Positions 3,235 through 63,535 of a stretch of 64,000 nt of DNA are shown piece by piece. The translations under genes were made by a program, and so were the position numbers. The notes under the pieces are model-generated. The model was given only the letters and a program-made list of their open reading frames with translations. It did no database searches and had not been told where the DNA came from. Where the stretch lies: the NCBI GenBank assembly GCA_951406725.2, contig OX597839.1:13702001-13766000 (forward strand), given 5' to 3'. Source of the DNA: Octopus vulgaris. Lineage: Eukaryota. How positions within the stretch are numbered: the stretch's first letter is position 1; each line of letters starts with the position of its first letter.

Positions 3235-3267
<33 letters not shown>

Positions 3268-3270
<3 letters not shown>

Positions 3271-3492
3271 TCTTTACTACCCACAAGGGGCTAAACATAG
3301 AGGGGACAAACAAGGACAAAGGGATTAAGTCGATTACATCGACCCCAGTGTGAAACTGGTACTTTATTTATCGACCCCAAAAGTATGAAAGGCAAAGTCG
3401 ACCTCAGCGGAATTTGAAATCAGATCGTAACGTCCGACGAAATACTGCTAAGCATTTCGCCCAGTGCGCTAACGTTTCTGCCAGCTTACCAC
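3268..3492 (-). mobile_element. SINE family C, Tx1-type tail
   Basis: Matches the family-C consensus (B-box-like ttcaaattcc). Ends 'ccccttgtgggtagtaaagaaat' into (TA)n. Confidence 0.85.
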
Positions 3493-3507
3493 CTTAGAAT
3501 ATTTTTT

Positions 3508-12350: not shown

Positions 12351-12357
12351 ATAGACC

Positions 12358-13832
12358 TATAGACCTATCTCTCTGACCTCACACATCAGCAAGGTCATGG
12401 AACAAATAGTCAGAAGGAAGCTGATCACCTTCCTTGAAGAGAATGACTTGCTGCCCGACACCCAACATGGTTTCCGACCAGGGAGAAGCTGTTTAACTCA
12501 GCTCCTACAACACTATGACTGGGTGCTGAAACGGCTGCTCAACCACTCAAATGTGGAAGTGATATATCTCGACTTTGCAAAGGCCTTTGATAAAGTCGAT
12601 CATGGAATGATATGTCACAAACTGCGTGATCTCAACATAGTTGGAAAACTGGGAGAATGGCTTCATGACTTTCTGAAAGATAGAAGTCAGGTGGTAGTGG
12701 CCAATGGGGCCACTTCCATTAACACGCAAATAGTGAGCGGTGTTCCGCAGGGCACTGTTCTGGGACCACTACTGTTCATAATGGCCCTCTCAGACATGCC
12801 CTCAGCCACGCAGAGAGCCACGATCACAAGTTATGCAGATGATACAAAAGTTTCACAGGCAATACAGAACCCTGAGGACACTAAACACCTGCAATGTGAG
12901 CTGGACGAAATATACAAGTGGGCTGAAAAGAATAGCATGCAGTTCAATGCTGGAAAGTTTCAAGCTTTATACTATCAGCATGCAAAACTGAATGCAATAC
13001 CCAATGAATACACTGGACCCGGAGGTATTGCAATCCCAGAGGCACAATCAGTGCGTGACCTGGGTATTCACATGAGTGATGACGCGACCTTTCATGTACA
13101 TGTTGCTAAACTGACAATGAAATGTAGACGGCTGGCTGGATGGATTCTTAGAACCTTTAGAACAAGAGAACAAGAAACCATGATGGTCCTCTGGAAGACA
13201 CTTGTCCTAAGCCACTTTGACTATTGCTCTCAGCTATGGTCACCATCCAGTGTCAAGTTGATCACAGAACTTGAGGCGATCCAACGAAGCTACACGAAGA
13301 AGATAGCCTCTATGCAGAATGTAAGCTACTGGGAAAGACTCAAGAGATTAAAATTATATTCCCTGGAGCGTAGGCGGGAAAGATATGCCATAATATACAT
13401 CTGGAAGATCCTGGAGGGAAGTGTCCTGAACTTTGGCATCGAGAGTTACGCAAATGCCAGAACTGGGCGCCACTGCGTGGTGCCTAGGACTCCAAACCTG
13501 CCATCAAGATGTAGGACAAGATTCTGTGATAGCGTGGGCTTCCGAGGCCCACAGCTCTTCAATATCCTCCCGAAGAACCTGAGAGACCTGCATGGGGTGG
13601 ATACAGATGTCTTTAAAATGAAGCTGGATCTCTTCCTGTCAGGTGTCCCAGATGAACCAACTTCACGGCAGGAGGGGCAGATGAGGGCAGCTGCATCGAA
13701 CTCTCTCATGCACCAAATAGCAGTTGCTAGAAAGCCCCCATGAAGTGAAACCAAGTAGCAACACCAAATGGCAGTGCCCCAGCATGGTCACAGCTCATAA
13801 GCTGAAACTAGAATCAATCAATCAAAAAATCA

Positions 13833-13871: not shown

Positions 13872-13938
13872 AATTTATATATATATTTATATATATATAT
13901 ATATATAATATAAATTTATATATATATATATAATATAA

Positions 13939-14184
13939 ATTTCTTTACTGCCCACAAGGGGCTAAACACAGAGGGGACAAACAAAGACAGACAGACGGAT
14001 TAAGTCGATTATATCGACCCCAGTGCGTAACTGGTACTTATTTAATCGACCACGAAAGGATGAAAGGCAAAGTCGCCCTCGGCGGAATTTGAACTCGGAA
14101 CGTAGCGGCAGACGAAATACCTATTTCTTTACTACCCACAAGAGCGGACAAACAAGGACAGACAAACGGATTAAGTCGATTATA
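13939..14184 (-). mobile_element. SINE family C, two Tx1-tailed units in tandem
   Basis: Junction 'aaagaaat-aggtatttcgtctgccgctacg' on the minus strand. Confidence 0.85.
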
Positions 14185-14438
14185 TATAATATATATATAC
14201 ACACACACAAAGAATAGGGAAAGAGACAAAAAAGAGATAGATAGATAGATGGATACAGAGAGAGAGAGAGGGGGATGAAATACAGAGACAGAGAGAGAGA
14301 GAAAGAGAGGATGAAAGACAGAGAGAGAGAGACAAAGAGAGGAAGAAATACAGAGATACAGAGAGAGAGAGAAAAACGAATGACAAAACTAGATGATCAC
14401 GTAATGAAAAAAAAAGTCCAGTCCGGCATAGTTTCGGT

Positions 14439-16146: not shown

Positions 16147-16592
16147 TTTTATTTTACTAACCCCGAAAGGATGAAAGAAAAGGTCATCTTTCGCGGAATT
16201 CAAACTTAGCACAGTCGGAGGGAATGCCGCCAAGCGTATTGCCCAACATGCTAACGATTCTGACAGCCCAGGTCAAGTTACAAAAAGTAAAATTATATTA
16301 AACCGAATTATTACTGAGCACTTTTTGTAGACTCCATATTTATTACGCTTTTTCAAGAAAAGTGGACACAGTGACTTTGGAGTTTCAGCTTGCTAGCCTT
16401 CACCGGACAGTCCGATTAACGTTCCGAGTTCAATTTCTGCCGAGGCCGATTTTTCATATTTTCGGAATCGAGGAAATAAGTGCCAGTTGAGCACCGGGGT
16501 CAATTACATCGATTAATTCCTTTCTGGCAGCCCGATGAAGGCTGTCAGGAAGCCAAAATTTCAGAGTCACTATCATCCACTCTTGAGAAAAT

Positions 16593-17074: not shown

Positions 17075-17453
17075 CTAGCAGTATCGCCCGGCGTTGCTCA
17101 GGTTTGTAAGGGAAATAACTATAAAGCATTTTTAGAGAGTTATAGCCAAAAAATAGCAAAAAAATGGGAAAAAAATGATGGTAAATTTTTTTTTGATAGT
17201 TAAAAAAGGTGGAGTTGCGTCCCCTACACAGTTTGTGGTTTGTGTTCCTGATTCTCGACCCCATGTCGAATTTATCGATTTTTTTCAGAACTGGGGGAAC
17301 TTTTCAAAATTTTCGCTGCGTTAGTTTTGAATTATGACATTGTGTGAGTCAAGTTTCATCAGAATCGGTTGAAAGCCGTGGTCAGGGTGAGGGTACAAGC
17401 AAACAGACACACAGAAACACGCACAGACAAACTGCCGTTTATATAGAGAGAGA
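17075..17453 (-). mobile_element. Non-autonomous Helitron
   Basis: TC..CTAG termini and hairpin. Near-identical to 59261-59636. Confidence 0.85.
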
Positions 17454-17480
17454 TGTATGTATATATATATATATATATGC

Positions 17481-17524
<44 letters not shown>

Positions 17525-17527
17525 ATA

Positions 17528-18505
17528 CCACTACTGTTCATAATGGCCCTCTCAGACATGCCCTCAGCCACGCAGAGAGCCACGATCACAAGTTATGCAG
17601 ATGATACAAAAGTTTCACAGGCAATACAGAACCCTGAAGACACTAAGCACCTGCAATTTGAGCTGGACAAAATATACAAGTGGGCTAAAAAGAATAGCAT
17701 GCAGTTCAATGCTGAAAAGTTTCAAGCTTTATACTATCAGCATGCAAAACTAAATGCAATACCCAATAAATACACTGGATCTGGAGGAATTGCAATACCA
17801 GAGGCACAATCAGTGCGAGACCTGGGTATTTATATGAGTGATGATGCAACCTTTCATGTGCATGTTGCTAAATTGGCAATGAAATGTAGGCGGCTGACCG
17901 GATGGATTCTTAGAACCTTTAGAACAAGAGACCAGGAAACCATGATGGTCCTCTGGAGGACACTTGTCCTAAGCCACTTTGACTATTGCTCTCAGCTATG
18001 GTCACCATCCAGTGTCAAGTTAATCACAGAACTTGCAGCGATCCAACGAAGCTACACAAAGAAGATAGCCTCCATGCAGCATATAAGCTATTGGGAAAGA
18101 CTCAAGAGATTGAGACTCTATTCCTTAGAGCGTAGGCGAGAAAGATATGCCATAATATACATCTGGAAGATCCTAGAAGGACTTGTCCCAAACTTTGGCA
18201 TCGAGAGTTACACAAATGCCAGAACTGGGTGCCACTGCATAGTGCCAAGGACTCCAAATTTGCCATCAAGATGTAGGACAAGATACTGTGATAGCCTGGG
18301 CTTCCGAGGCCCACAGCTCTTCAATATCCTCCCGAAGAACCTAAGAGACCTGCATGGGGTGGATGCAGATGTCTTTAAAATGAAACTAGATCTCTTCTTG
18401 TCAGGTGTCCCAGATGAACCAACTTCACGGCAGGAGGTGCAGATGAGGGCAGCTGCATCAAACTCTCTCATGCACCAGATGGCATTTGCTAAAAAGCATT
18501 CGTGA
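17528..18505 (+). pseudogene. Truncated LINE RT fragment (PLLF..YADD..C-terminus), frame open
   Basis: Highly similar to the 12397 ORF. The N-terminus given in the ORF track is microsatellite. Confidence 0.88.
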
Positions 18506-18590
18506 AGTAAAATCATGTAGCAACACCAAATGGCAGTGCCCCAGCATGGCCACAGCATGTGAGCTGAAACTAAATAAAAAAAAAATAAAT
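17528..18590 (+). mobile_element. Second 5'-truncated CR1-clade LINE
   Basis: Collinear with ~12766-13810; same 3' UTR. Confidence 0.9.
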
Positions 18591-25605: not shown

Positions 25606-25808
25606 TAAAACCACTGGGAATGAGGGACCCTTGGTGTCAGGGCCCGCATTAAAACCACTGGGAGTGAGGGACCCTTGGTATCAGGGCCCGCATTAAAACC
25701 ACCGGGAGTGAGGGACTCTTGGTGTCAGGGCCCGCATTAAAACCACCGGGAGTGAGGGATCCTTGGTGTCAGGGCCCACATTAAAACCACTGGGAGTGAG
25801 GGACCCTT
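25606..25808. repeat. 44-bp tandem repeat, ~4.6 copies
   Basis: Unit 'taaaaccactgggagtgagggacccttggtgtcagggcccgcat'; the ccac anchor recurs at 25611, 25655, 25699, 25743 and 25787. Confidence 0.95.
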
Positions 25809-27172: not shown

Positions 27173-27560
27173 CATGTTTGTTACTGTATTTATTTTAAGA
27201 TGCTCTGTGTTTCTTTCAATTACTTTAAATATAACAAAGAATTTAGTAAAATAACTTAGTTATCATTCAGCTAGTGTTAGGAACATAAATTGTGACTAAG
27301 GTTTGGTGGAAGATTTTAATTCAAAACTTATGAAAACAAGACATTTGTTACCATATTTGTGTTGAGATGCTCTGTGTTTCTTTCAATTACTTTTAAATAT
27401 AACAAAGAATTTAGTAAAATAACTTAGTTATCATTCAGCTCGTGTTAGGAACATAAATTGTGACTAAGGTTTGGTGGAAGATTTTAATTCAAATCTTATG
27501 AAAACAAGACATTTGTACTCAGAGCCAGAGCCGGTTTCAGCCAGGTTGTTAATGAAAGGG
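27173..27560. mobile_element. piggyBac-like MITE with internal tandem duplication (~167 bp)
   Basis: Right end 'gaaaggg|ttaa', degenerate left end after ttaa at 27169. 27199-27348 is repeated at 27366-27516. Confidence 0.6.
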
Positions 27561-31535: not shown

Positions 31536-32344
31536 TCCTTGTTCAGCATCCACTCTCCATGTTGGCATGGGTTGGACGGTTTGACATGGAGCTGACTAGC
31601 AGAGAGTTGTCCAGACTGCAGCTGTTTATTATTATTTCTTTACTGCCCACAAGGGGCCAAACAAGGACAGACAAACGGATTTCCCTTTCACATAGTAAGA
31701 AGCTCTCTGTCTTCATTATTTGTAGTTTTATTTCTGAGACACGATGCTACAAGTAAACTAAAATGCTCTTCACACATAGAAATCAGTCTTTAATACTAAT
31801 GACCTCATTATTACAAACACTGTACTGAAGTGTCCTCAACAAGTGGCCACAACACCTCAGCATATGTAATCCACACTTGATATTTAATATCTTACATTAA
31901 CAACTGTCTGGTGTTATTTGAAGACTGTGTTGTTTCCTTTAAAACATATTTTTTAAATGTCTTAGCTATTTGTAATGGGTGGATGACAACAAAAACATAG
32001 TCGTGGTGTACCACCTTGGTGGCTGATTGTGGCTACATAAAATATCCTAGCCAAAGGTTCCAGGTTCAGTCCCACTGCATGGCACCTTGGGCTAGTATTT
32101 TCTAAGATGCCTCAGGTTAACCAAAGCCTTGTGAATGGATTTGGAAAATGGAAATTGAAAGAAGCCCATCATAAATATGCATGTGTGCATGTGTGTTTGT
32201 TTATGCCTGTTTGTCCCCCACTACCACTCAACAACTTGTGTTGGTGTGTTTATGTCCCTGTAACTTAGCAGTTCAGCAAAAGAAACTAATACAAGTACCG
32301 GGCTTAAAATGATAATAATCACTGAGATTGATTCATTTGTTTAT

Positions 32345-32975
32345 CTTTTACTTGTTTCAGTCATTAGACCGTGGCCATGCTGGGGCACCACCTTGAAGAA
32401 TTTTTAGTTGAATGAATTGACCCCAGTACTTATTTTTTGTCAAGTCGGATATGTTTTCTAGTGGGCTCTTTTGCTAAGCCGCTAAGTTATAGGGATGTAA
32501 ACACACCATCCCAGGTAGTAAAGCAGTGGGGGGAGGGGACAAACATAGTCACAAAGACACACACACATACATAAACAACAGGCTTCTTTCAGTTTCCATT
32601 TACCAAATCCACTCACAAGGCTTTGGTCAACCTGAGGCTACTGAACAAACTTGCCCAAGTGGATGACAACAAAAACATAGTGTTGGTGAACCACCTTGGT
32701 GGCTGATTGTGGTTACATAAAATATCCTAGCCAAAGGTTCCAGGTTCAGTCCTACTGTATAGCACCTTGCGTTTTCTAAGATGCTTCAGATTAACCAATG
32801 CCTTGTGAGATGATTTGGAGGATGAAAACTGAAAGAAGCCCATCATAAATATGCATGCTTTTGGGGTCAATAAAATAAGTACCAGTTGAACACTTGGGTT
32901 GATATAACATGGTGGGACTGAACCCAGAACCATGTGGTTGGGAAGCAAGCTTCTTACCACACAGCTTAGCCTGCA
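32345..32975 (-). mobile_element. SINE family A interrupted by locally templated inserts
   Basis: The reverse SINE breaks at 'cttgcccaag' (32659) and resumes at 'gtgggactgaaccc' (~32912). Confidence 0.75.
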
Positions 32976-33142
32976 TCCGATCAAAATATAAACGACTATA
33001 AAGCTGATCCTAACGAAGATATAACTGAAATCTTTGATTTGCATAATATGGTAAATTTATGGTTTCATTTTTTTATTTCAATGCTGTTACAGAATTGTAT
33101 TAACATTTTCTTATATAAAAACACTTCAAAATATCTTTCAAT

Positions 33143-33713
33143 GAGCAAGCTGGCAGACTCATTAGCATACCTGGCAAAAGTACCTAATAGCATCTCATCC
33201 ACCTCGACGTTCTGAGTTCAAATTGTGTTCAGGTCAACTTTACCTTTTATGCTTTTGGGGTCAATAAAATAAGTACCAGTCGAACACTGGGGTTGATATA
33301 ATTGACTTAATCCGTTTGTCTGTCCTTGTTTGTCCCCTCTGTGTTTAGCCCCTTGTGGGTAGTAAAGAAATAGGTATTTTGTCTGCCGCCATGTACTGAG
33401 TTCAAATTCTGCCGAGGTCGACTTTACCTTTCAGGGTCGATAAATTAAGTACCAGTTACGCACTGGGGTTGATATAATCGACTTAATCCGTTGGTCTGTC
33501 CTTGTTTGTCCCCTCTGTGTTTAGCCCCTTGTGGATAATAAAGAAATAGGTATCTTGTCAGTCTTTACGTTCTGAGTTCAAATTCCACCGATGTCAGCTT
33601 TGCCTTTCATCCTTTCAGGGTCGATAAATTAAGTACCAGTTGCATACTGGGGTCAATCTAATCAACTGCCATCCTGCAAAAAAAATCTCAGGTCTTGTGC
33701 CTAGAGTAGATAA
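33143..33713 (+). mobile_element. SINE family C trimer (tail1-tail1-tail2)
   Basis: Two 'aaagaaat-aggtat' junctions at ~33371 and ~33547. Confidence 0.85.
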
Positions 33714-34124
33714 GTATAATAATAAGGGTTTCAAATTTTGCCACGAGGACAGCCATTCTGGAGAGAGGGGATAAGCCAATTTCATCTATATATATATACA
33801 TAGCCAAATGGATTGACCCTGAAGATGTTGCACCAAAAACTGTGCTAGGTTGCACCTGCAACTGCCTATAATTTGTGATGTGGAGACATGCACAGGTCAT
33901 AAAGACCATAATCATATGCTGTATAAAATTGTAAAATAAGCGGAAATACATTTTGAGGATGAACAAGTCTCCATGTTCTATTATTGCTAATAAACACACA
34001 CACACACAAACATACCTATATATGCACCCACACATAGGCATGCATGTGTTTGTGTGTGTTTGTGTATATCTATCTATCTATCTGTCTGTCTGTCTATCTA
34101 TTTGTGTGTATATATATATATATG

Positions 34125-41565: not shown

Positions 41566-42305
41566 ATTGGTTTCAAATCTCTGGTACAAGACCAGCTATG
41601 TCAGGAAAGTGGGTAAATCGATTGAATCGATCCCAATGTTCAACTGGTACGTATTTTATCGCACCCGAAAGGGCAAAAGGCAAAATCGACCGCGGCGGAA
41701 TTTGAACTCAGAACATAGCGGCAGACGAAATACCTATTTCTTTATTGCCCACAAGGGGCTAAACACAGAGAGGACAAACAAGGACAGACAAACGGATTAA
41801 GTCGATTATATCGACCCCGAAGGGATGAAAGGCAAAGTGGACCTCGGCGGAATTTGAACTCAGAACGTAGCGGCAGACGAAATTTCTTTACTACCCACAA
41901 GGGGCTAAACACAGAGAGGACAAACGGATTAAGTCGATTATATCGACCCTAGTGCGTAACTGGTACTTATTTAATCGACCCTGAAAGGATGTAAGGCAAA
42001 GTCGACCTTGGCGGAATTTGAACTCAGAACATAACGACAGACGAAATACCGCTAAGCATTTCGCCCGGCGTGCTAACGTTTCTACCAGCTCGACCCGCTT
42101 CAGACTAAATATAATGGTTTGAAATTTTAGCACAAGACCTGTGATTTTGAGGGAGTGGGGTCAGTCGATTAGATCAACTCCAGTGTACGTCCGAAAAGAT
42201 GAATGGCAAAGAGGACCTCGGCGGAGTATGAACTCAAAATGTAGACAGACGAAATGCAACTAAGCATTTTGCCCGGCGTGCTAACGATCCTGCCAGCTCG
42301 CCGCC
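41566..42305 (-). mobile_element. SINE family C array (4 units)
   Basis: Minus-strand order: tail2 unit, then head-tail1, tail1, tail2. Confidence 0.85.
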
Positions 42306-42359
42306 TTAAAACAATAGATATAGTGAAAGATAAATAGTAGACATTACACAAACACATAG

Positions 42360-44259: not shown

Positions 44260-44759
44260 GCTTCTGCAAATATAAATATATACACCGTCCTACACACCAG
44301 ATGACATCGAATTTTTACTCCTACACACATTCTATATACATACATACATACATACATACATTTACAAGCAGACCAAAATACGGCATACCTACACGTGTAT
44401 GCCACCACCGATTGTATTTCCTCATAACTTCCAGAAAAATGGATATTTCCTTTATGAAATTTTCCACAAATACGCTTCAGATGATGTGGATTCCGATCAT
44501 ATCGGAATTTGTTGCAAAAATGGTTTCGAAAGGTGGGGTGAAGCATTTCGGAAAATCACTCGAGTTGACTTTGTTACGTCATGTTTTTCCCAAAAATGTT
44601 AAACAAATATTTCATTAAAAAAAGATATTTTTTAATGAAATTTTCTACAGTTATACTTCATAGGTAGATTCTGATTATGTCCGAGGAAAGGGAAAGGAGT
44701 TTCGGTGTTTCCTTATAACTCGGTGTTTCCTTATAATTTCGGAATGTCAATTTGATAGT

Positions 44760-44910
44760 GAACACCCGTTCACTATCCAGGAGAACCCAGAGGTGCCTCA
44801 ACCTCAACGCATGTCTGCGCATCATTAACCAAGGCATCCCTAAACCTCCCTTTAAAGGCTTTTGACAGCAGACAGAGCGTTTCACAAGTGGCGACCTGCC
44901 CTTCCACAAA
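44760..44910 (-). pseudogene. Tx1-clade ORF2 fragment
   Basis: WKGRSPLVKRSVCCQKPLKGGLGMPWLMMRRHALRLRHLW; paralogous to 46497-46625. Confidence 0.8.
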
Positions 44911-45096
44911 AATTTTCAATGAATACTTTTCAGATACCTTTCAAAAAATACCTTTCCGACATAATCGTGTATATTACGATTGTATCAGAATTCAATATGA
45001 AAAAAAAAAAAAAGAAAAGAAAGAAAAACAGCTTGGTTCGTACCCATACATACCGACACACATCACAAAAGGAATTTGGAGATTTCGGAAAAATTC

Positions 45097-45472
45097 TTTT
45101 CTTTTCTGCTCTAGGTATAAGGCCCGAAATTTGGGGGGAGTGAGCCAGTCGATTACATCGACCCCAGTGCGTAACTGGTACTTATATAATCGACCCCGAA
45201 AGGATGAAAGGCAAAGTTGACCTCGGCGGAATTTGAACTCAGAACGTAGCGTCAGACGAAACACCGCTAAGCATTTTGCGCGGCGTACTAACGTTTCTTA
45301 TTTCTTTATTCCCCACAAGGAGCTAAACATAGAGGGGACAGACAAAGCAATTAAGTTGATTATATCGACCCCAGTGCGTAACTGGTACTTAATTTATCGA
45401 CTCCGAAAGGATGAAAGGCAAAGTCGACCTCGGTGGAATTTGAACTCAGAACGTAACGGCAGACGAAATACC
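45097..45472 (-). mobile_element. SINE family C, 3' portion (tail1 unit plus tail2 unit) of the copy interrupted by Tx1
   Basis: Starts at the TSD 'ggtatttcgtctgccgttac' immediately after the LINE 3' end. Confidence 0.85.
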
Positions 45473-45709
45473 AATTTCATTATTGCCCACCGGGGGCCAA
45501 ACATAGAAATGGACAGAACAGCTGATGGAATCAGTGATGCGATATGATTTTACATATAATGTGACTTTAAAAATTTACATACAATATATAAAAAATCGAA
45601 TGGAATTAACAATACAAAGACAATACAAATGAAGCGATGATCAGGCCACGCTCCGACCCCACAAGCCCCGATCTACTGCTGGTACCTTTTTTTTCTTTTT
45701 TTTTCCGGT

Positions 45710-46628
45710 CTATTCACACGGTTTCTTGCACGAACAACACTCGTGCAACATGCTTCCATCTCTTTCGGAACTATACTCCGACAGACACCTCTTCTCCAGC
45801 CACAGCTTCCTTTTCAAATGGAAAGAAAAAAAATGATCGTAAATTGTGACCAGAGATAAAGTTGCCTGTCTTAATTCCTTTTATCCTAATCTTCCATACT
45901 GCCTCTTTCGCTATTGCTACAACCGTGAGAAAACAATTCTTACCTTCGTTCGTTAAAACTCCTGGTGGGTCAATTTTTATAATTGACTCAGTCGACAGCT
46001 GTACTCTTCCTTCGCCGGACAACAGGTGTTCAGCATAAGCCCACATTTCAGTTATCTCCGGACACTGAACAATAGCGTGAGGGACGGTTTCCCTGCCCCC
46101 CCCCCCCGCATCTTGGACAGGTCAGCGACTGACGTTTACCATGTCTTGCGAGCTTATCCCAAATGGGCAAGGAATCTCTGTAGCATTGCCAGATTAAGGA
46201 CTTTTGGAAGTTGTCCAACGTTCTCAACCCGAATGTACAGTGAAACAGGCTGTCCAGTTGAATAAATCCGAGACCTAGAGTCGACCACAGGCCATCGTCG
46301 CATTCAGACTCTACCAATCCACTATATAAAATCCGCGTGGAACCCCCCACCGCTGGCGTTGCCCGAGCGCCGGAATAGCAAGAGGGCCTTACGGCACTCT
46401 TTATATCACTCACTCGACCTCGGTCTACGAGAACACTAGGCTTCCAGTTCGCAAAAACTTTTGAACTCGGGGAACATTTGTCTGGCTAGCGGAGACCACA
46501 CCCGTTCACTCTCCAGGAGAATCCAGAGGTGCCTCAACCTCAAAGCATGTCTGCGCATCATTAACCAAGGCATCCGTAAACCTCTCTTTAAAGGGTTTTG
46601 ACAGCAGACAGAGCGCTTCACAAAAAGC
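45710..46628 (-). pseudogene. Tx1 ORF2 C-terminal remnant with CCHC (zf-RVT-like) motif
   Basis: LDNFQKSLIWQCYRDSLPIWDKLARHG..TCPRC (frameshift) ETVPHAIVQCPEITEMWAYAEHLLS..AIAKEAVWKIR; stops and frameshifts. Confidence 0.8.
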
Positions 46629-46770
46629 GAAAGAGCTGTCTCTCCAACCTGATCAACCACGAATCCGGACAGGGCACGACGGTCAGGCGGTAGGTAATGA
46701 CCGATGCGATAAACACATTTCAGGGATAGCCACCACCAAGACCAGGTCTTGACTATTGCAGCCACCCTGC

Positions 46771-47457
46771 TCAATACCTCTGTCCAGTTCTTCTCTGCTG
46801 GAGGTTAATACTATCTTCCCTGTTTGCCAGGACCGCCGCCATCAAGCACATAGGGTTTACTCCGGGTGGATTTCTAGGTATTCTCACTTTTGATGTTCTC
46901 ATTCCCATGTAAATTGAGATTAACAGAGTGTCTTCCGACTCTAAAGATTTTATAGAGTGTTTTTGTGCCGTTTCTGCATTCTTGAACCTCACCACGATGG
47001 TTCCAAGCTTCTTCCCTCTGGCTAGATATGTAATGTCCTGCCAGATGGGTTTTAGACATTTTTCAATTTTTTGTTCACATATTTTATCAATTTTACGTGC
47101 TTTTAAGCAAAATGTTTTAAAAATAATAAATTTCTTTTTTTCCTCCGTTAATTCTTCTGGTATTTCCACTTTTACCATTCCATCTCGTTCTTTTATCATA
47201 TCTTTATATTTTAAATATTCTTTTATGTCGGTTGACAGCTGCCGCGTTCCACCACCAGCCGCTGACGCAAAACTTTTGCTTTCTTCATTTTGGATGGTCC
47301 TTTTTTCTGTCTTCCTATTGGTGTTCGTAACTCTTGGTAATGTTGGAAATTCGCTTTCCGACACATCAGAAACGTCAAAAATTAAGCTTTCTATTTTCTT
47401 GGCTTCTCTTTCAATTAATGCTTCGTCTCCCGACGAAGAACACGAACTTTTCGGCAT
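46771..47457 (-). CDS. Tx1-like ORF1 (228 aa, probably C-terminally damaged)
   Basis: Complex non-repetitive ORF with SFASAA and an RRM-like 'GTIVVRF..IYMGMRTSKVRI..PPGV' region, upstream of the ORF2 remnant on the same strand. Confidence 0.7.
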   Translation of the reverse strand: MPKSSCSSSGDEALIEREAKKIESLIFDVSDVSESEFPTLPRVTNTNRKTEKRTIQNEESKSFASAAGGGTRQLSTDIKEYLKYKDMIKERDGMVKVEIPEELTEEKKKFIIFKTFCLKARKIDKICEQKIEKCLKPIWQDITYLARGKKLGTIVVRFKNAETAQKHSIKSLESEDTLLISIYMGMRTSKVRIPRNPPGVNPMCLMAAVLANREDSINLQQRRTGQRY

Positions 47458-47618
47458 CTTGCCGGCAATTAATATTTTCCCCCACAGGGAAAAACCACAG
47501 ATAGCTTTCGAAAGAAAACTATACTACAATTTTTTCAACAATAAGTCCAACAATAGGCACAACAAGAAATATAACAGTTAATAGAAACTTATGAACACAC
47601 TCCAACAATAAATTTTCA

Positions 47619-47686
47619 GTAACAGACGTACGATATACCACAATGCATTTCGCTCGGCGTGCTAACGTTTCTGTCAACTCGCTGCC
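47619..47686 (-). mobile_element. SINE family C 5' head, upstream of the Tx1 insertion
   Basis: Minus strand 'ggcagcgagttgacagaaacgttagcacgccgagcgaaatgcattgtggtatatcgtacgtctgttac'. Confidence 0.85.
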
Positions 47687-47804
47687 TTGATTTCGGAAAA
47701 AAATTCTAATGCATGTCAGTATATGTGCGAGCCCGCAATTTTTTTTTTTTTTTTCATGCCAAATTCCGATATAACTGTAGTGTATGACATCTGAAAGGCA
47801 TTTG

Positions 47805-47946: not shown

Positions 47947-49239
47947 TCCCAGCCTCGGCTAAAGAAACATTTTTCATCAACGAATTCCAATATAATTGGT
48001 ATCTGCATTATCTGAAGTATATTTGTGAAAAATTTTCATTAAAAAATATATATTTTTCTGGAAGTTATCAAGGAACATAGTTGGAGTGGGGGCACACATG
48101 TGTAGGTATGCCAAAAATACATTGGGCTGGTCGCGGCTGGAATGTCTTTGAGGTAGGTCTGCTTCAGAGTACATCGGTCACGCTGAGACAAGAAGGGACC
48201 CGTTACTAGTGACTATTTGGAGGTCCTCTTCTTAAATAATAAAAAAAAAGGCGCAGGAGTGGCTGTGTGGCTAAACACAGAGGACAAACAAGGACAGACA
48301 AACAGATTAAGTGACTGGTACTTATTTAAGACGGATTAGTGACTGGTACTTATTTAATCGACCCCGAAAGGATGAAAGGCAACTTGTGTCGAAGTGATCA
48401 CAGAGCAATGCGAGACGAAGTGCTTTGCTCAAGAATGGGAAAAAAACAAACAAAAAACAAAACGAACGAAATTATCTGACAACTCAATATTTACAACGAA
48501 GTAAAGAACGAACAGCAGCCTTAACGTGAGGCGTATTTAAACCGTACTCTGTGGGTCCTATATGCTGGAAAATAGCGTTTTGTAGCGATAATTCAAATGA
48601 TGTCTGCACTGTTGAAATGCGAACTGACGAACTTTTGGCTGGAAGATCGACCTGCTATCAACTGTAACACGTGTTATATTTACATCAGCTGATGCCGAAT
48701 AATCGATACTTACGTCCTACACATATGTACGCATGATTATACAGTCAAATGCAGACACAAATATCGGTGACGAATTAGAGCACCGGACGAACTTCCATGC
48801 CGTATTAATCCTAGCTATCTTACGGTCGGGGTTCAAATGACTCCCAAGGACAACTTTACTTTTTATCTTTCGACGAGAGTTGATAAAGAGCCAGTTTAGA
48901 GTGGTGAACTCGCTGAATCGTTAGAGCATCAGGCGGGCAGGTCTTTCACTGATTCGGATCTCAACACGCAGCCCGGTCCGGGATTCGAACTCACAACCTC
49001 ACGATCGTAAGCTCGACGCTCTAACCACTGAGCCATGCGCCTTCACTTTATATATATCTATATATATATATATGTGTGTGTGTGTATGTGTGTGAGTGTG
49101 TGTGTGTGTGTGTGTTTATTTATTTATACACAGTATATGTATGTATACATATATCATTTAAAGAACGGTGTATTATATGGAAGCTTACTGTTATTTATAG
49201 AAACCTCAAAATAATGCAGACTTGCAGACATAAGTTTGT

Positions 49240-49690: not shown

Positions 49691-49705
49691 TATGCATCGT
49701 ATTTA

Positions 49706-50318
49706 AGGCCTCGAATTGGCAAAATCGTTAGCACGCCTGGTAAAATGCTTAGCAATTTTCAAATTCCGCCAAGGTCGACTTTGCCATTTATCCTTTCGGG
49801 ATTGATAAAATATACGTGCCATATTAGCACTGGGGCCGATGTAATCGACTGGTCCCTTCCCAGTATTACTGCCCTCGTGCCAAAATTTGAAACCAATATT
49901 TACTAATATTAAGGCGGCGAGTTGGGAGAATGGTTAACACGCCGGGCAAAATGCTTAGCGGCAATTCGTCCGTATTAACGTTTTTTAGTTCAATTTCTGA
50001 CGAGGTTGATTCTCTCTTTTATACTGTCGGGGTCGGTAAAGTATATACCAGTTGAGCACTGGGGTCGATGTAATCGACTTACCCACTTAATAGAAATTGC
50101 TGGCCTTGTGCCCAAATTTGAACCAATACTTACAAATATCAAGGCGGCAAACTGGCAGAATCGTTATCACGTCGGGAAAAATACTTAGCGACATTTCGTT
50201 CGTATTTACGTTCTAAGTTCAATTTCTGCCGAGGTTGATTTTGTCTTTTTTCCTCTCAGGGTCGATAAAATATATACCAGCTGAGCACTGTAATCGACTA
50301 ACCCCTTTCCCAGAAATT
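49706..50318 (+). mobile_element. Three head-to-tail SINE C (tail2) units
   Basis: Heads at ~49706, 49912 and 50142; tails 'gtgccaaaatttgaaaccaat'. Confidence 0.8.
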
Positions 50319-50895
50319 GTATTATGTATATATGTATGTATTATGTATGCATGCATATATGTATGTGTGTATATGTATGGATTCTTGTGTGTATGTATGC
50401 ATGCATGCATGCATGTATGTATGTATGCGTGCAAGTATGTATGTATGTATGTATGTATGTATGCATGCATGCATGCATGCATGTATGTGTGTATGTATGT
50501 ATATATGTATGTGTGTATGCATGCATGCATGTATGTATGTATGTGTGTATGTATACATGCTTGTGTGTATGTGTGTATGTATGTGTGTATGTATGCGTGC
50601 GTATATGTGTGTATATATATTTGTATGTATGTATCTATGTACGTGAATGTACGTCTATGTGGATAGATATACGTATATGTCTGTGTGCACTTATGCAAGC
50701 ATGTATGCGTATGTGCCTACTTGTATGTGTATGTCACACACAAAGTACTTTTGTATGTGACAAAAGTATTACACACATGTAACACTTAAATGCCACTTAG
50801 GCAACACTAATGAAGCACTAATGTAGCACTAATGTAGCGCTAAACTTACTAATGCATGTGTACATAGCGAGTGTGTGGGTGGTTATGATAAGTAC

Positions 50896-53221: not shown

Positions 53222-53460
53222 CACTAATCAGATGGTAATTCTTCGAAGGTCACCGATAAAACAGAACATTTGATGCTTTCCCCGCAAAATTAACAGCTCT
53301 AACCTCACTCCTCCAGATTCCCGAAGCCATAAATCTCAACGACACCATTATACAGCATAATAACCATCTCACAATCAACATAATTAACAACACGGGGATA
53401 ATGAGTGGTTGAAGACGATGAAGCGCCATTGAGAATCTGTTATATTACTTAGAATAATAA

Positions 53461-54304
53461 GGCGGCGAGCTGGCAGAAACGTTAGCACGCCGGGCGAAAT
53501 GCTTAGCAGTATTTCGTCTGCCGCTACGTTCTGAGTTCAAATTCCGCCGAGGTTGATTTTGCCTTTCATCCTTTCGGGGTCAATTAAATAAGTACCAGTT
53601 ACGCACTGGGGTCGATATAATCGACTTAATCCGTTTGTCTGTCTTTGTTTGCCCTCTCTGTGTTTAGCTATTTGTGGGTAGTAAAGAAATAGGTATTTCG
53701 TCTGTCTTTACGTTCTGAGTTCAAATTTCGCTAAGGTCGATTTTGCTTTTCATCCTTTCAGGGTAGATAAATTAAGTACCAGTTGTGTACTGGAGTCGAT
53801 CTGATCGATTGACCCTCTCCCGCAAAATTTCGGACCTTGTGCCTAGTGTAGAAAGCAATATATAATAGCACACTCAAGGCGGCGAGCTGGCAGAAACGTT
53901 AGCACGCCGGGCGAAATGCTTAGCGGTATTTCGTCTGCCGCTACGTTCCGAGTTCAAATTCCGCCGAGGTCAACTTTGCCTTTCATCCTATCGGGGTCGT
54001 TAAATTAAGTACCAGTAACGCACTGGGGTCGATATAATCGATTTAATCCGTTTGTCTGTCCTTGTTTGTTCTCTCTGTGTTTAACCCCTTGTGGGCAATG
54101 AAGAAATAAGAAACGTTAGTACGCCGGGCGAAATGCTTAGCAGTATTTCGACTGTCTTTACGTTCAGAGTTCAAATTCCGCCGAGGTTGATTTTATCTTT
54201 CATCCTTTCGGGGTCGATAAATTAAGTACCAGTTGCGTACTGGGGTCGATCTAATCGATTGGCCCCTTCTCCCAAAATTTCGGGCCTGTGTCTAGAATAG
54301 AAAA
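53461..54304 (+). mobile_element. SINE family C array: two (tail1+tail2) dimers
   Basis: Heads at 53461 and 53878; rejoin points 'aaagaaat-aggtatttcg' (~53691) and 'aagaaat-aagaaacgttag' (~54108). Confidence 0.9.
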
Positions 54305-54380
54305 GTACAAACGCACAAACAATGTCATATATATATATATATATATATATATCTTGTCCCAGTTTGTATTTTTTTACTTT

Positions 54381-62524: not shown

Positions 62525-63533
62525 AAAGTTTTTTACGACGAATATAAGACCTATATCCAAGTAGCAGAAAGATCGCCCAAAAGTGTATATAGATATTTAA
62601 ATGTATTTATATATTCATCTATACACAGATGTATGTATAATGTGTGTGTATATATTTCCATAGCGGTAACCTTTCACTCCATACAAAGTTTTTTAGGACG
62701 AATATAAGATCTAAAGTATATACAAGTAGCAGAAAGATCGCCCAAAAGTGTATATAGATATTTAAATGTATTTATATATTCATCTATACACAGATGTATG
62801 TATAATGTGTGTGTATATATTTCCATAGCGGTAACCTTTCACTCCATACAAAGTTTTTTAGGACGAATATAAGATCTAAAGTATATACAAGTAGCAGAAA
62901 GATCGCCCAAAAGTGTATATAGATATTTAAATGTATTTATATATTCATCTATACACAGATGTATGTATAATGTGTGTGTATATATTTCCATAGCGGTAAC
63001 CTTTCACTCCATACAAAGTTTTTTAGGACGAATATAAGATCTAAAGTATATACAAGTAGCAGAAAGATTGCCCAAAAGTGTATATAGATATTTAAATGTA
63101 TTTATATATTCATCTATGCACACATGTATGTATAACGTGTGTATATATATTTCCATAGAGGTAACCATTCACTCCATACAGAGTTTTTTAGGACGAAAAT
63201 AAGATCTAAAGTTATCTCTAAGAAAAAGAAAGATCGCCCAAAAGTGTATATAGATATTTAAATGTATTTATATATTCATCTATACACAGATGTATGTATA
63301 ATGTGTGTGTATATATTTCCATAGAGGTAACCTTTCACTCCATACAAAGTTTTTTTTAGGACGAATATAACATCTAAAGTTATCTCTAAGAAAAAGAAAG
63401 ATCGCCTAAAAGTGTATATAGATATTTAAATGTATTTATATATTCATCTATACACACATGTATGTATAATGTGCGTGTATATATTTCCATAGAGGTAACC
63501 ATTCAATCCATACAAAGTTTTTTAGGACGAAAA
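62525..63533. repeat. 165-168-bp tandem array, ~6 copies
   Basis: Anchor 'gatcgcc' at 62571, 62736, 62901, 63066 (variant gattgcc), 63232 and 63400. Confidence 0.97.
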
Positions 63534-63535
63534 TA

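Follow-up and report, generated by a model that had tools for sequence, protein, structure and literature searches.

SINE copies that carry one particular tail, here called tail-1, are repeatedly joined to the interior of other copies of the same SINE family in a 64,000-nucleotide window of the Octopus vulgaris genome (the window being the whole stretch of DNA analysed). Eight of the eleven SINE tail-1 ends found there lead into SINE sequence with no new head between, five of them at one and the same nucleotide, and the 3′ end of an L1/Tx1-group LINE is joined to that nucleotide as well. On balance we favour the view that these arrays grew by LINE-directed, site-preferring self-insertion with homology-joined 5′ ends, together with the re-copying of read-through multimers.

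The SINE family and its tail-1 junctions

The window consists of animal DNA rich in repeats, with a GC content of about 36%, and a single SINE family occupies approximately 5,000 of its bases (7.8%, both strands). We number the SINE from the first G of its head (window 53461 or 53878). Head and body are common to all copies up to approximately position 168, after which one of three tails follows, known here as tail-1 (to 231), tail 2a, and tail 2b; no partner LINE was found for tails 2a and 2b. Positions 10–21 are A-box-like and positions 74–85 B-box-like, judged by eye against the box consensus. ARAGORN predicted no tRNA gene, and Rfam returned neither a tRNA nor an snRNA match. The copies are dispersed and at least once flanked by a target duplication, which is a feature of tRNA-derived SINEs; the duplication is clear at one of nine elements examined, ambiguous at one, and not evident at seven. 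Octopus SINEs named OK, OR1, and OR2 were reportedly described as tRNA-derived by Ohshima and Okada in 1994, and the family in this window may be one of them. A stop of four T is absent from the consensus units. Among the arrays, B and E have no such run and one to three occur in each of C, D, H, and I, and single copies also carry them. In the predicted fold of the head RNA (two heads) positions 48 and 15 lie at the edges of hairpin loops (z −2.4, −2.9), and the fold of tail-1 RNA gave nothing significant (z −0.2, 0.2, −1.7). A short inverted repeat is found at positions 151–165, just ahead of the divergence of the tails, and near it lie the truncation of array B, the switch within array C, and the start of an inverted tail-2b fragment; it is a possible hot spot for template switching. 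Degraded partial copies are found at 48265–48382, 16149–16267, 16416–16523, and 32854–32907, the first of these with an internal rearrangement followed by a partial tail-1.

Scanning the window with a 21-nt tail motif gave 12 matches where 0.02 were expected, that is, the eleven SINE tails and one LINE 3′ end. Tail-1 passes into position 48 at five junctions (14122, 33372, 33548, 41735, and 53691), into position 53 at 41882 (6 nt short), and into position 15 at two junctions (45299 and 54108). The remaining three tail-1 ends are off-site, at 3267 and 13938 running into TA repeats and at 31633 into unique sequence. All eight junctions listed by the original prediction, which was made from the sequence before this analysis, are present within 1 nt of the coordinate it gave, and its claim that tail-1 is followed by SINE interior and not by a new head thus describes eight tails of eleven, the three off-site ends having gone unmentioned. 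Under a uniform null over 168 positions, at least five of eight junctions fell on one position in none of 200,000 simulations, and P is approximately 1e-9 for eight of eleven ends falling in same-strand SINE sequence; both nulls presume independent events, which the copying of composites would violate. The two sites, 48 and 15, have in common the motif TRGC/RGWAW, a likeness noticed post hoc. Enrichment of TRGCRGWAW was considered as an independent test and rejected, since most of its 25 matches (8.3 expected) are already accounted for, nine being the SINE sites themselves, two antisense SINE, and seven lying in satellite.

The SINE stretch was also matched in sequencing runs of five organisms, and four runs were mapped onto one tail-1 unit (53868–54108). 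The joint between tail and position 15 recurs in three of the organisms, which we call A, C, and D. It occurs in 5 contigs of organism A, in 11 of organism C, and in 1,381 and 720 RNA reads of organism D at a mean tail-end depth of 3,852 and 2,663, reads that may derive from few loci and whose counts are not copy numbers. In contigs of A and C, moreover, positions 62–63 are immediately followed by a new head (3 and 4 contigs at 62, with two letters between in C). This is the 5′ junction expected of a full-length insert with a 15–16-bp duplication from position 48; for eight of the nine head-rejoining rows among the joints listed, the intervening sequence is unknown and the rows may be alignment breaks. 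The exact position-48 joint is absent among the 15 joints listed out of 470, a variant with two other letters being found in organism C. Reference bias is a possible cause of this absence, as 3 of the last 13 bases of the reference tail are not those of most position-48 tails. RNA reads map to the two strands in equal numbers, and thus no SINE-specific transcript is shown. Organism D carries in addition a SINE variant in its RNA (joint 53905 to 53950; 495 and 268 reads) in which 44 nt of the head-body region are replaced by 10 other letters, and the contigs listed for A and C do not have this variant. Searches of viral contigs (1 and 0 hits), metagenomes (49), and prokaryote genomes (0) yielded no genuine further copy, all 50 viral and metagenome loci being rejected as chance matches of the motif alone, and word shares of 0.05–0.15 in insect and invertebrate metatranscriptomes were not counted as evidence.

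Organization of the arrays and the LINE at position 48

Two of the arrays lie on the forward strand between 53459 and 54305. Here a unit with head, body, and tail-1 (53459–53691) is followed by a headless unit that starts at position 48 and ends in tail 2a (53692–53855), together forming array H. After an AT-rich spacer of 20 nt (53856–53875) array I begins with another complete tail-1 unit (53876–54108), which served as reference for read mapping, and continues with a unit from position 15 that again ends in tail 2a (54109–54305). Array C, also on the forward strand, consists of a first unit with an old 2b-like head and body and an undiverged tail-1 (33139–33372), a second unit from position 48 with tail-1 (33373–33548), and an end unit from position 48 with tail 2a (33549–33712). 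On the reverse strand, array D starts with a tail-1-type head, body, and a tail-1 with a deletion of 14–15 nt (41882–42097), continues from position 53 with a unit that has an internal deletion and tail-1 (41735–41881), and is closed by an end unit from position 48 that is tail-1-type to approximately position 96, then of the old 2b type with tail 2b (41566–41734). Array B (13938–14187, reverse strand) is headless. It begins directly after a TA run with a 5′-truncated tail-1 piece from approximately position 156 (14122–14187), passes into a unit from position 48 with tail-1 (13938–14121), and ends in a TA run; it is a truncated dimer copy or the result of a later deletion. Two further tail-1 elements on the reverse strand are not at a SINE site, namely a monomer flanked by TA runs (3267–3495) and a tail-1-only fragment in unique sequence (31633–31681). 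Closure of the arrays by a second kind of tail, which the original prediction had put at four of five, is seen at that frequency if 53461–54305 is counted as one array and in five of six if six arrays are counted; its single "tail 2" turned out to be two tails, 2a and 2b.

Another type of clustering, in which tail 2, an AT-rich spacer of 13–20 nt, and a complete head follow one another, occurs four times (within 49704–50320 on the forward strand, from 42113–42307 to 42097 on the reverse strand, and from 53855 to 53876 on the forward strand). In the trimer at 49.7–50.3 kb the two spacers are alike and the difference between units 2 and 3 is 15%, compared with 23–31% for other 2b pairs, which suggests a local duplication. 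An inverted tail-2b fragment from approximately position 154 (33724–33785, reverse strand) lies directly after array C, and the 2b character of the first unit of that array ends near the same position. Two 5′-truncated copies of another RT-encoding LINE lie between TA runs at 12355–13830 and 17447–18570 on the forward strand, the former being oriented opposite to array B, whose TA run it adjoins. The window further contains a 165-bp tandem repeat (62525–63535; 6.1 copies, 94% matches, three copies identical), a direct duplication of 168 bp (27177–27516; 95%), and a 44-bp minisatellite of 4.6 copies (25606–25808).

Array E, on the reverse strand, holds the LINE. Between the left (47689–47707) and right (45081–45097) copies of an outer duplication of 17–19 bp, 13 bp of it exact, there follow a host head of positions 1–57 (47630–47688), the internally deleted LINE (45473–47629, with its 5′ boundary known to about ±10 nt), a body from position 48 with tail-1 (45299–45472), and an end unit from position 15 with a tail-1-type body and tail 2a (45101–45298). 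As a control for the outer duplication, 26 of 4,984 random 30-mer pairs score as high, and nine elements were examined. The LINE 3′ end at 45473 is joined to position 48, the main site, as had been claimed, and positions 48–57 are found on both sides of it as an inner duplication of approximately 10 bp (9 of 10 bases alike). The outer duplication thus places the LINE within what had been a single SINE insertion, and no other observation supports so directly the view that integration really occurs at position 48, although only one copy shows it. Divergence is greater in the head preceding the LINE (7/47) than in the body following it (4/121), so that more than one order of events is possible for this array. 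Tail-1 is homologous to the last 47 nt or so of the LINE (alignment score 50, compared with at most 26 in 300 shuffles).

In this LINE the start of ORF1 (47457–46801; first 221 residues) is fused to the part of ORF2 that follows the RT (46798–45726), with frameshifts. The ORF2 remnant, which has lost endonuclease and RT, aligns to residues 734–1103 of a full-length relative, P0085, at 40–53%. The best solved relative of P0085 is human L1 ORF2 (E 1e-50; R2 4e-22), and its relatives carry PF03372, PF00078, and PF13966 (endonuclease, RT, and zf-RVT), so that the L1-group character of ORF2 is established for the window LINE through P0085. ORF1 is 86% identical to O. vulgaris protein P0001, in which inspection reveals a CX2CX4HX4C motif (the CCHC knuckle of ORF1) that is deleted in the window copy. 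Pfam searches gave no hit for P0001 and nothing significant for four pieces of the LINE, and a search for longer homologues with the last ORF2 piece returned nothing. These comparisons of protein sequence, which cover membership of the L1 group, assign the LINE to that group, and the more specific Tx1 label that it had been given is likely; the homologue searches brought up no named Tx1 reference. Public databases list P0001 as a host gene, "EPM2A-interacting 1-like," which is probably a mis-annotation. A second fragment of the same LINE family (44721–44954, reverse strand; 94% over 126 nt) lies approximately 150 nt beyond array E and has no ends from which a target site could be judged.

Models for the formation of the arrays

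The units of these arrays are heterogeneous. There are two sites, two to three units per array, and at least three types of end unit (2a, 2b, and tail-1); inner units carry different deletions, and end units are 13–25% apart except where they are tail-1-type. A single ancestral composite amplified whole, as in an Alu-like dimeric family, which the original prediction had itself raised as the case of equal unit ages and shared mutations, is rejected on these grounds. Inner bodies differ by 2–7% from the tail-1 consensus and end units by 8–18% from leave-one-out class consensuses, the latter built from 3–4 copies only; in array D the inner units differ from the tail-1 consensus at 9/121 and 2/84 positions and the end unit at 18/121. 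The expectation that inner units are younger than outer ones is borne out in direction and is not significant where it can be tested, that is, in private differences within the three arrays with 2a bodies (17/324 inner and 26/348 end, p = 0.27).

Plain nesting predicts a host head, a duplication, and a second head upstream of the insert, and since a second head is found at none of the eight window junctions it is not supported as stated. Two arrays are moreover mosaic, with heads or body segments that do not match the end unit. In array C the first unit is old and 2b-like (13/45, 14/49, and 9/46 mismatches; 26/121), yet its tail has 0/63. In array D the end unit is tail-1-type over positions 48–96 (2/49) and old beyond (16/72; p = 0.008, with the breakpoint picked post hoc), and its head is tail-1-type, the other head type being found in the first unit of array C and in all four headed 2b monomers. 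All four tail-2a units in the window are headless and each comes after a tail-1, and the two end units joined at position 15 have a change at position 26 in common. The missing second heads, headless array B, the mosaics, the headless 2a units, and the shared change thus call for homology-guided joining, read-through copying, or later conversion, and copying or recombination, not assembly in place, seems to account for some of the chains. Of the proposal that Tx1 inserts tail-1 copies into existing SINE copies (there named SINE-C), the part that stands is the derivation of tail-1 from the LINE 3′ end and the location of the LINE, at position 48 of a SINE that is itself bracketed by a duplication; the building of nested multimers in its simple form is not supported.

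The explanation we lean towards combines these observations with three steps that we infer, namely an endonuclease preference, homology-joined 5′ ends, and read-through copying. The endonuclease of an L1/Tx1-group LINE would prefer the SINE head, mainly between positions 47 and 48 and also between 14 and 15. One SINE subfamily would have gained the LINE 3′ end as its tail-1, so that the LINE proteins could copy its RNA into those sites. Because the sequence upstream of the cut is identical to the 5′ part of the SINE RNA, the cDNA may anneal there and make a seamless 5′ join, and the product would be one head, then body and tail-1 any number of times, then the remainder and tail of the host. 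With no four-T stop in the consensus units, transcripts of an array may run through the junction. Such read-through RNAs would pair with the target and be copied as multimers, by which junctions would spread and mosaics arise. Some arrays, namely B and E with no four-T run, could be read through, and the runs in single copies mean that this does not hold for all. In the case of R2, the accessible text of one study states that read-through target sequence raises the accuracy of insertion (PMC6795142), and the discussion of another, on crocodilian SINEU and Tx1-Mar elements, holds that co-transcription strengthens targeting (PMC4494074, as far as accessible). In favor of this explanation we count the tail homology, the single nucleotide used by the LINE and five tails, the duplications of array E, the diversity of end units, the position-15 joints in organisms A, C, and D, the new heads at 62–63 in A and C, and the motif shared by the sites. 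Counted against it are the three off-site tails, the exact position-48 joint missing from those listed, the single copy from which the site preference of the LINE is read, and also the missing second heads, the age comparison (p = 0.27), the tail-2a units always following tail-1, as a dimer family would, and the shared change at position 26.

The last four of these would be natural if the junctions arose once or a few times, for instance when the LINE first landed in a SINE, and dimers and trimers then spread as whole transcripts, with gene conversion making the mosaics and descent fixing the positions. Array B, headless between TA runs, fits this as well, as does the outer duplication of array E, which equally fits a copied dimer. 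We regard such descent from a few composite masters as rather unlikely, since tail-1-type, 2a, and 2b units and the LINE are all joined at position 48 and several masters would have to share one nucleotide, since the LINE, whose sequence contains at least 12 runs of four or more T, could not have been transcribed within a Pol III RNA and is flanked by a duplication of its own, and since new-head joints at 62–63 are found in two other organisms.

It is improbable, in our judgment, that each array was written in a single insertion, in which SINE RNAs that were cleaved or terminated at positions 48 and 15 were copied to their 5′ ends and the reverse transcriptase then jumped to the 3′ end of a tail-1 RNA. 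Jumping of this kind accounts for the one head, the seamless joins, and the headless array B; the predicted loop edges at 48 and 15 speak for it, and template switching has been proposed for SINEU 5′ extensions in the accessible part of PMC4494074. It leaves the 10-bp duplication around the LINE unexplained, and divergence within one array is very unequal, as in the first unit of array C with its unchanged tail and the end unit of array D. Very improbable is the duplication of the 48–231 segment in place by unequal crossing-over or slippage, as in the SINE-derived satellites described in reptiles (PMC10702118, in the part available), for which the head-to-tail order and the TRF call of 33244–33667 as a 176-bp tandem can be cited, because neighboring inner units are no closer (21% in C, 10% in D) than units across arrays (5–12%), inner units carry different deletions, and local duplication can neither create the junction nor put a LINE there. 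A SINE-derived satellite was rejected on the same pairwise matrix, in which neighbors are not more alike than units elsewhere.

Known systems and significance

The nearest precedent is the crocodilian SINEU/Tx1-Mar system; the arrays described here work alike and are not a member of it. In that system too, a SINE and a Tx1 LINE share a target inside another repeat (Kojima, 2015; PMC4494074), there are two preferred target sites and tandems explained by sequential insertion, and the hitch-hiking of composites is likewise the rival explanation, all according to the accessible text of PMC4494074. The same text gives as the target of SINEU a Mariner DNA transposon, with tandems that sandwich a duplication and with U1/U2-derived heads, and reports no shared SINE-LINE tail for SINEU-1, whereas in the octopus arrays the target is the head of the SINE itself, SINE and LINE have a tail in common, and the joins are seamless; the junction flanks are the SINE itself, none of the eight junctions sandwiches a duplication, and no snRNA match was found. 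Tx1 of Xenopus in Tx1D and Keno in U2 genes are likewise Tx1-clade elements with a fixed site in multicopy sequence, and the summary of them in PMC4494074 names no non-autonomous partner that doubles as target. R2 in 28S rDNA belongs to another clade and has rDNA as its target; flanking target sequence in its RNA pairs with the target and improves accuracy (PMC6795142, in part), and by analogy read-through may play such a role in the octopus arrays. SINE multimers as such are common (PMC8466645, in the part accessible). B1/B2 of rodents, Dip multimers of jerboa (PMC8466645), and SINE-derived satellites (PMC10702118) likewise form SINE chains that raise the question of insertion or composite copying, but in the accessible parts of these papers the chains consist of complete units in head-to-tail order or of partial repeats that have been homogenised, and not of units joined through a LINE tail at fixed positions within the head.

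A literature search, mostly of open-access papers, found no description of these arrays, nor of any SINE that targets its own head; Repbase, the 1994 octopus SINE consensuses, and the O. vulgaris repeat library were outside its scope, and the library may bear on novelty. The arrays are not mentioned in the accessible parts of PMC13282606, including text of its supplement, and there is nothing on them in those of PMC4758252, PMC4824008, and PMC5786205. In the 2026 annotation of O. vulgaris, recent insertions include 893 "unclassified SINE" families, and SINEs make up 11.6% of the genome (PMC13282606, in part), and some of these families may be linked to the arrays described here.

More tentatively, the elements may form a closed loop, in which the SINE family would be cargo, target, and guide of a Tx1-type LINE and would grow by self-nesting at two fixed sites across several octopus species, each insertion rebuilding a promoter from the A box of the host and the B box of the insert and making a read-through RNA complementary to the next target. 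If this is true, the SINE would have members of its own family as a safe place to land, which would add a new class of target for Tx1-type elements and provide a natural example of seamless retrotransposition guided by RNA. Whether SINE multimers are built by insertion or copied as composites, a question left open for rodents in the accessible part of PMC8466645, would then have an answer testable within a single genome, and mosaics of this kind would inflate the counts of SINE families and distort their ages.
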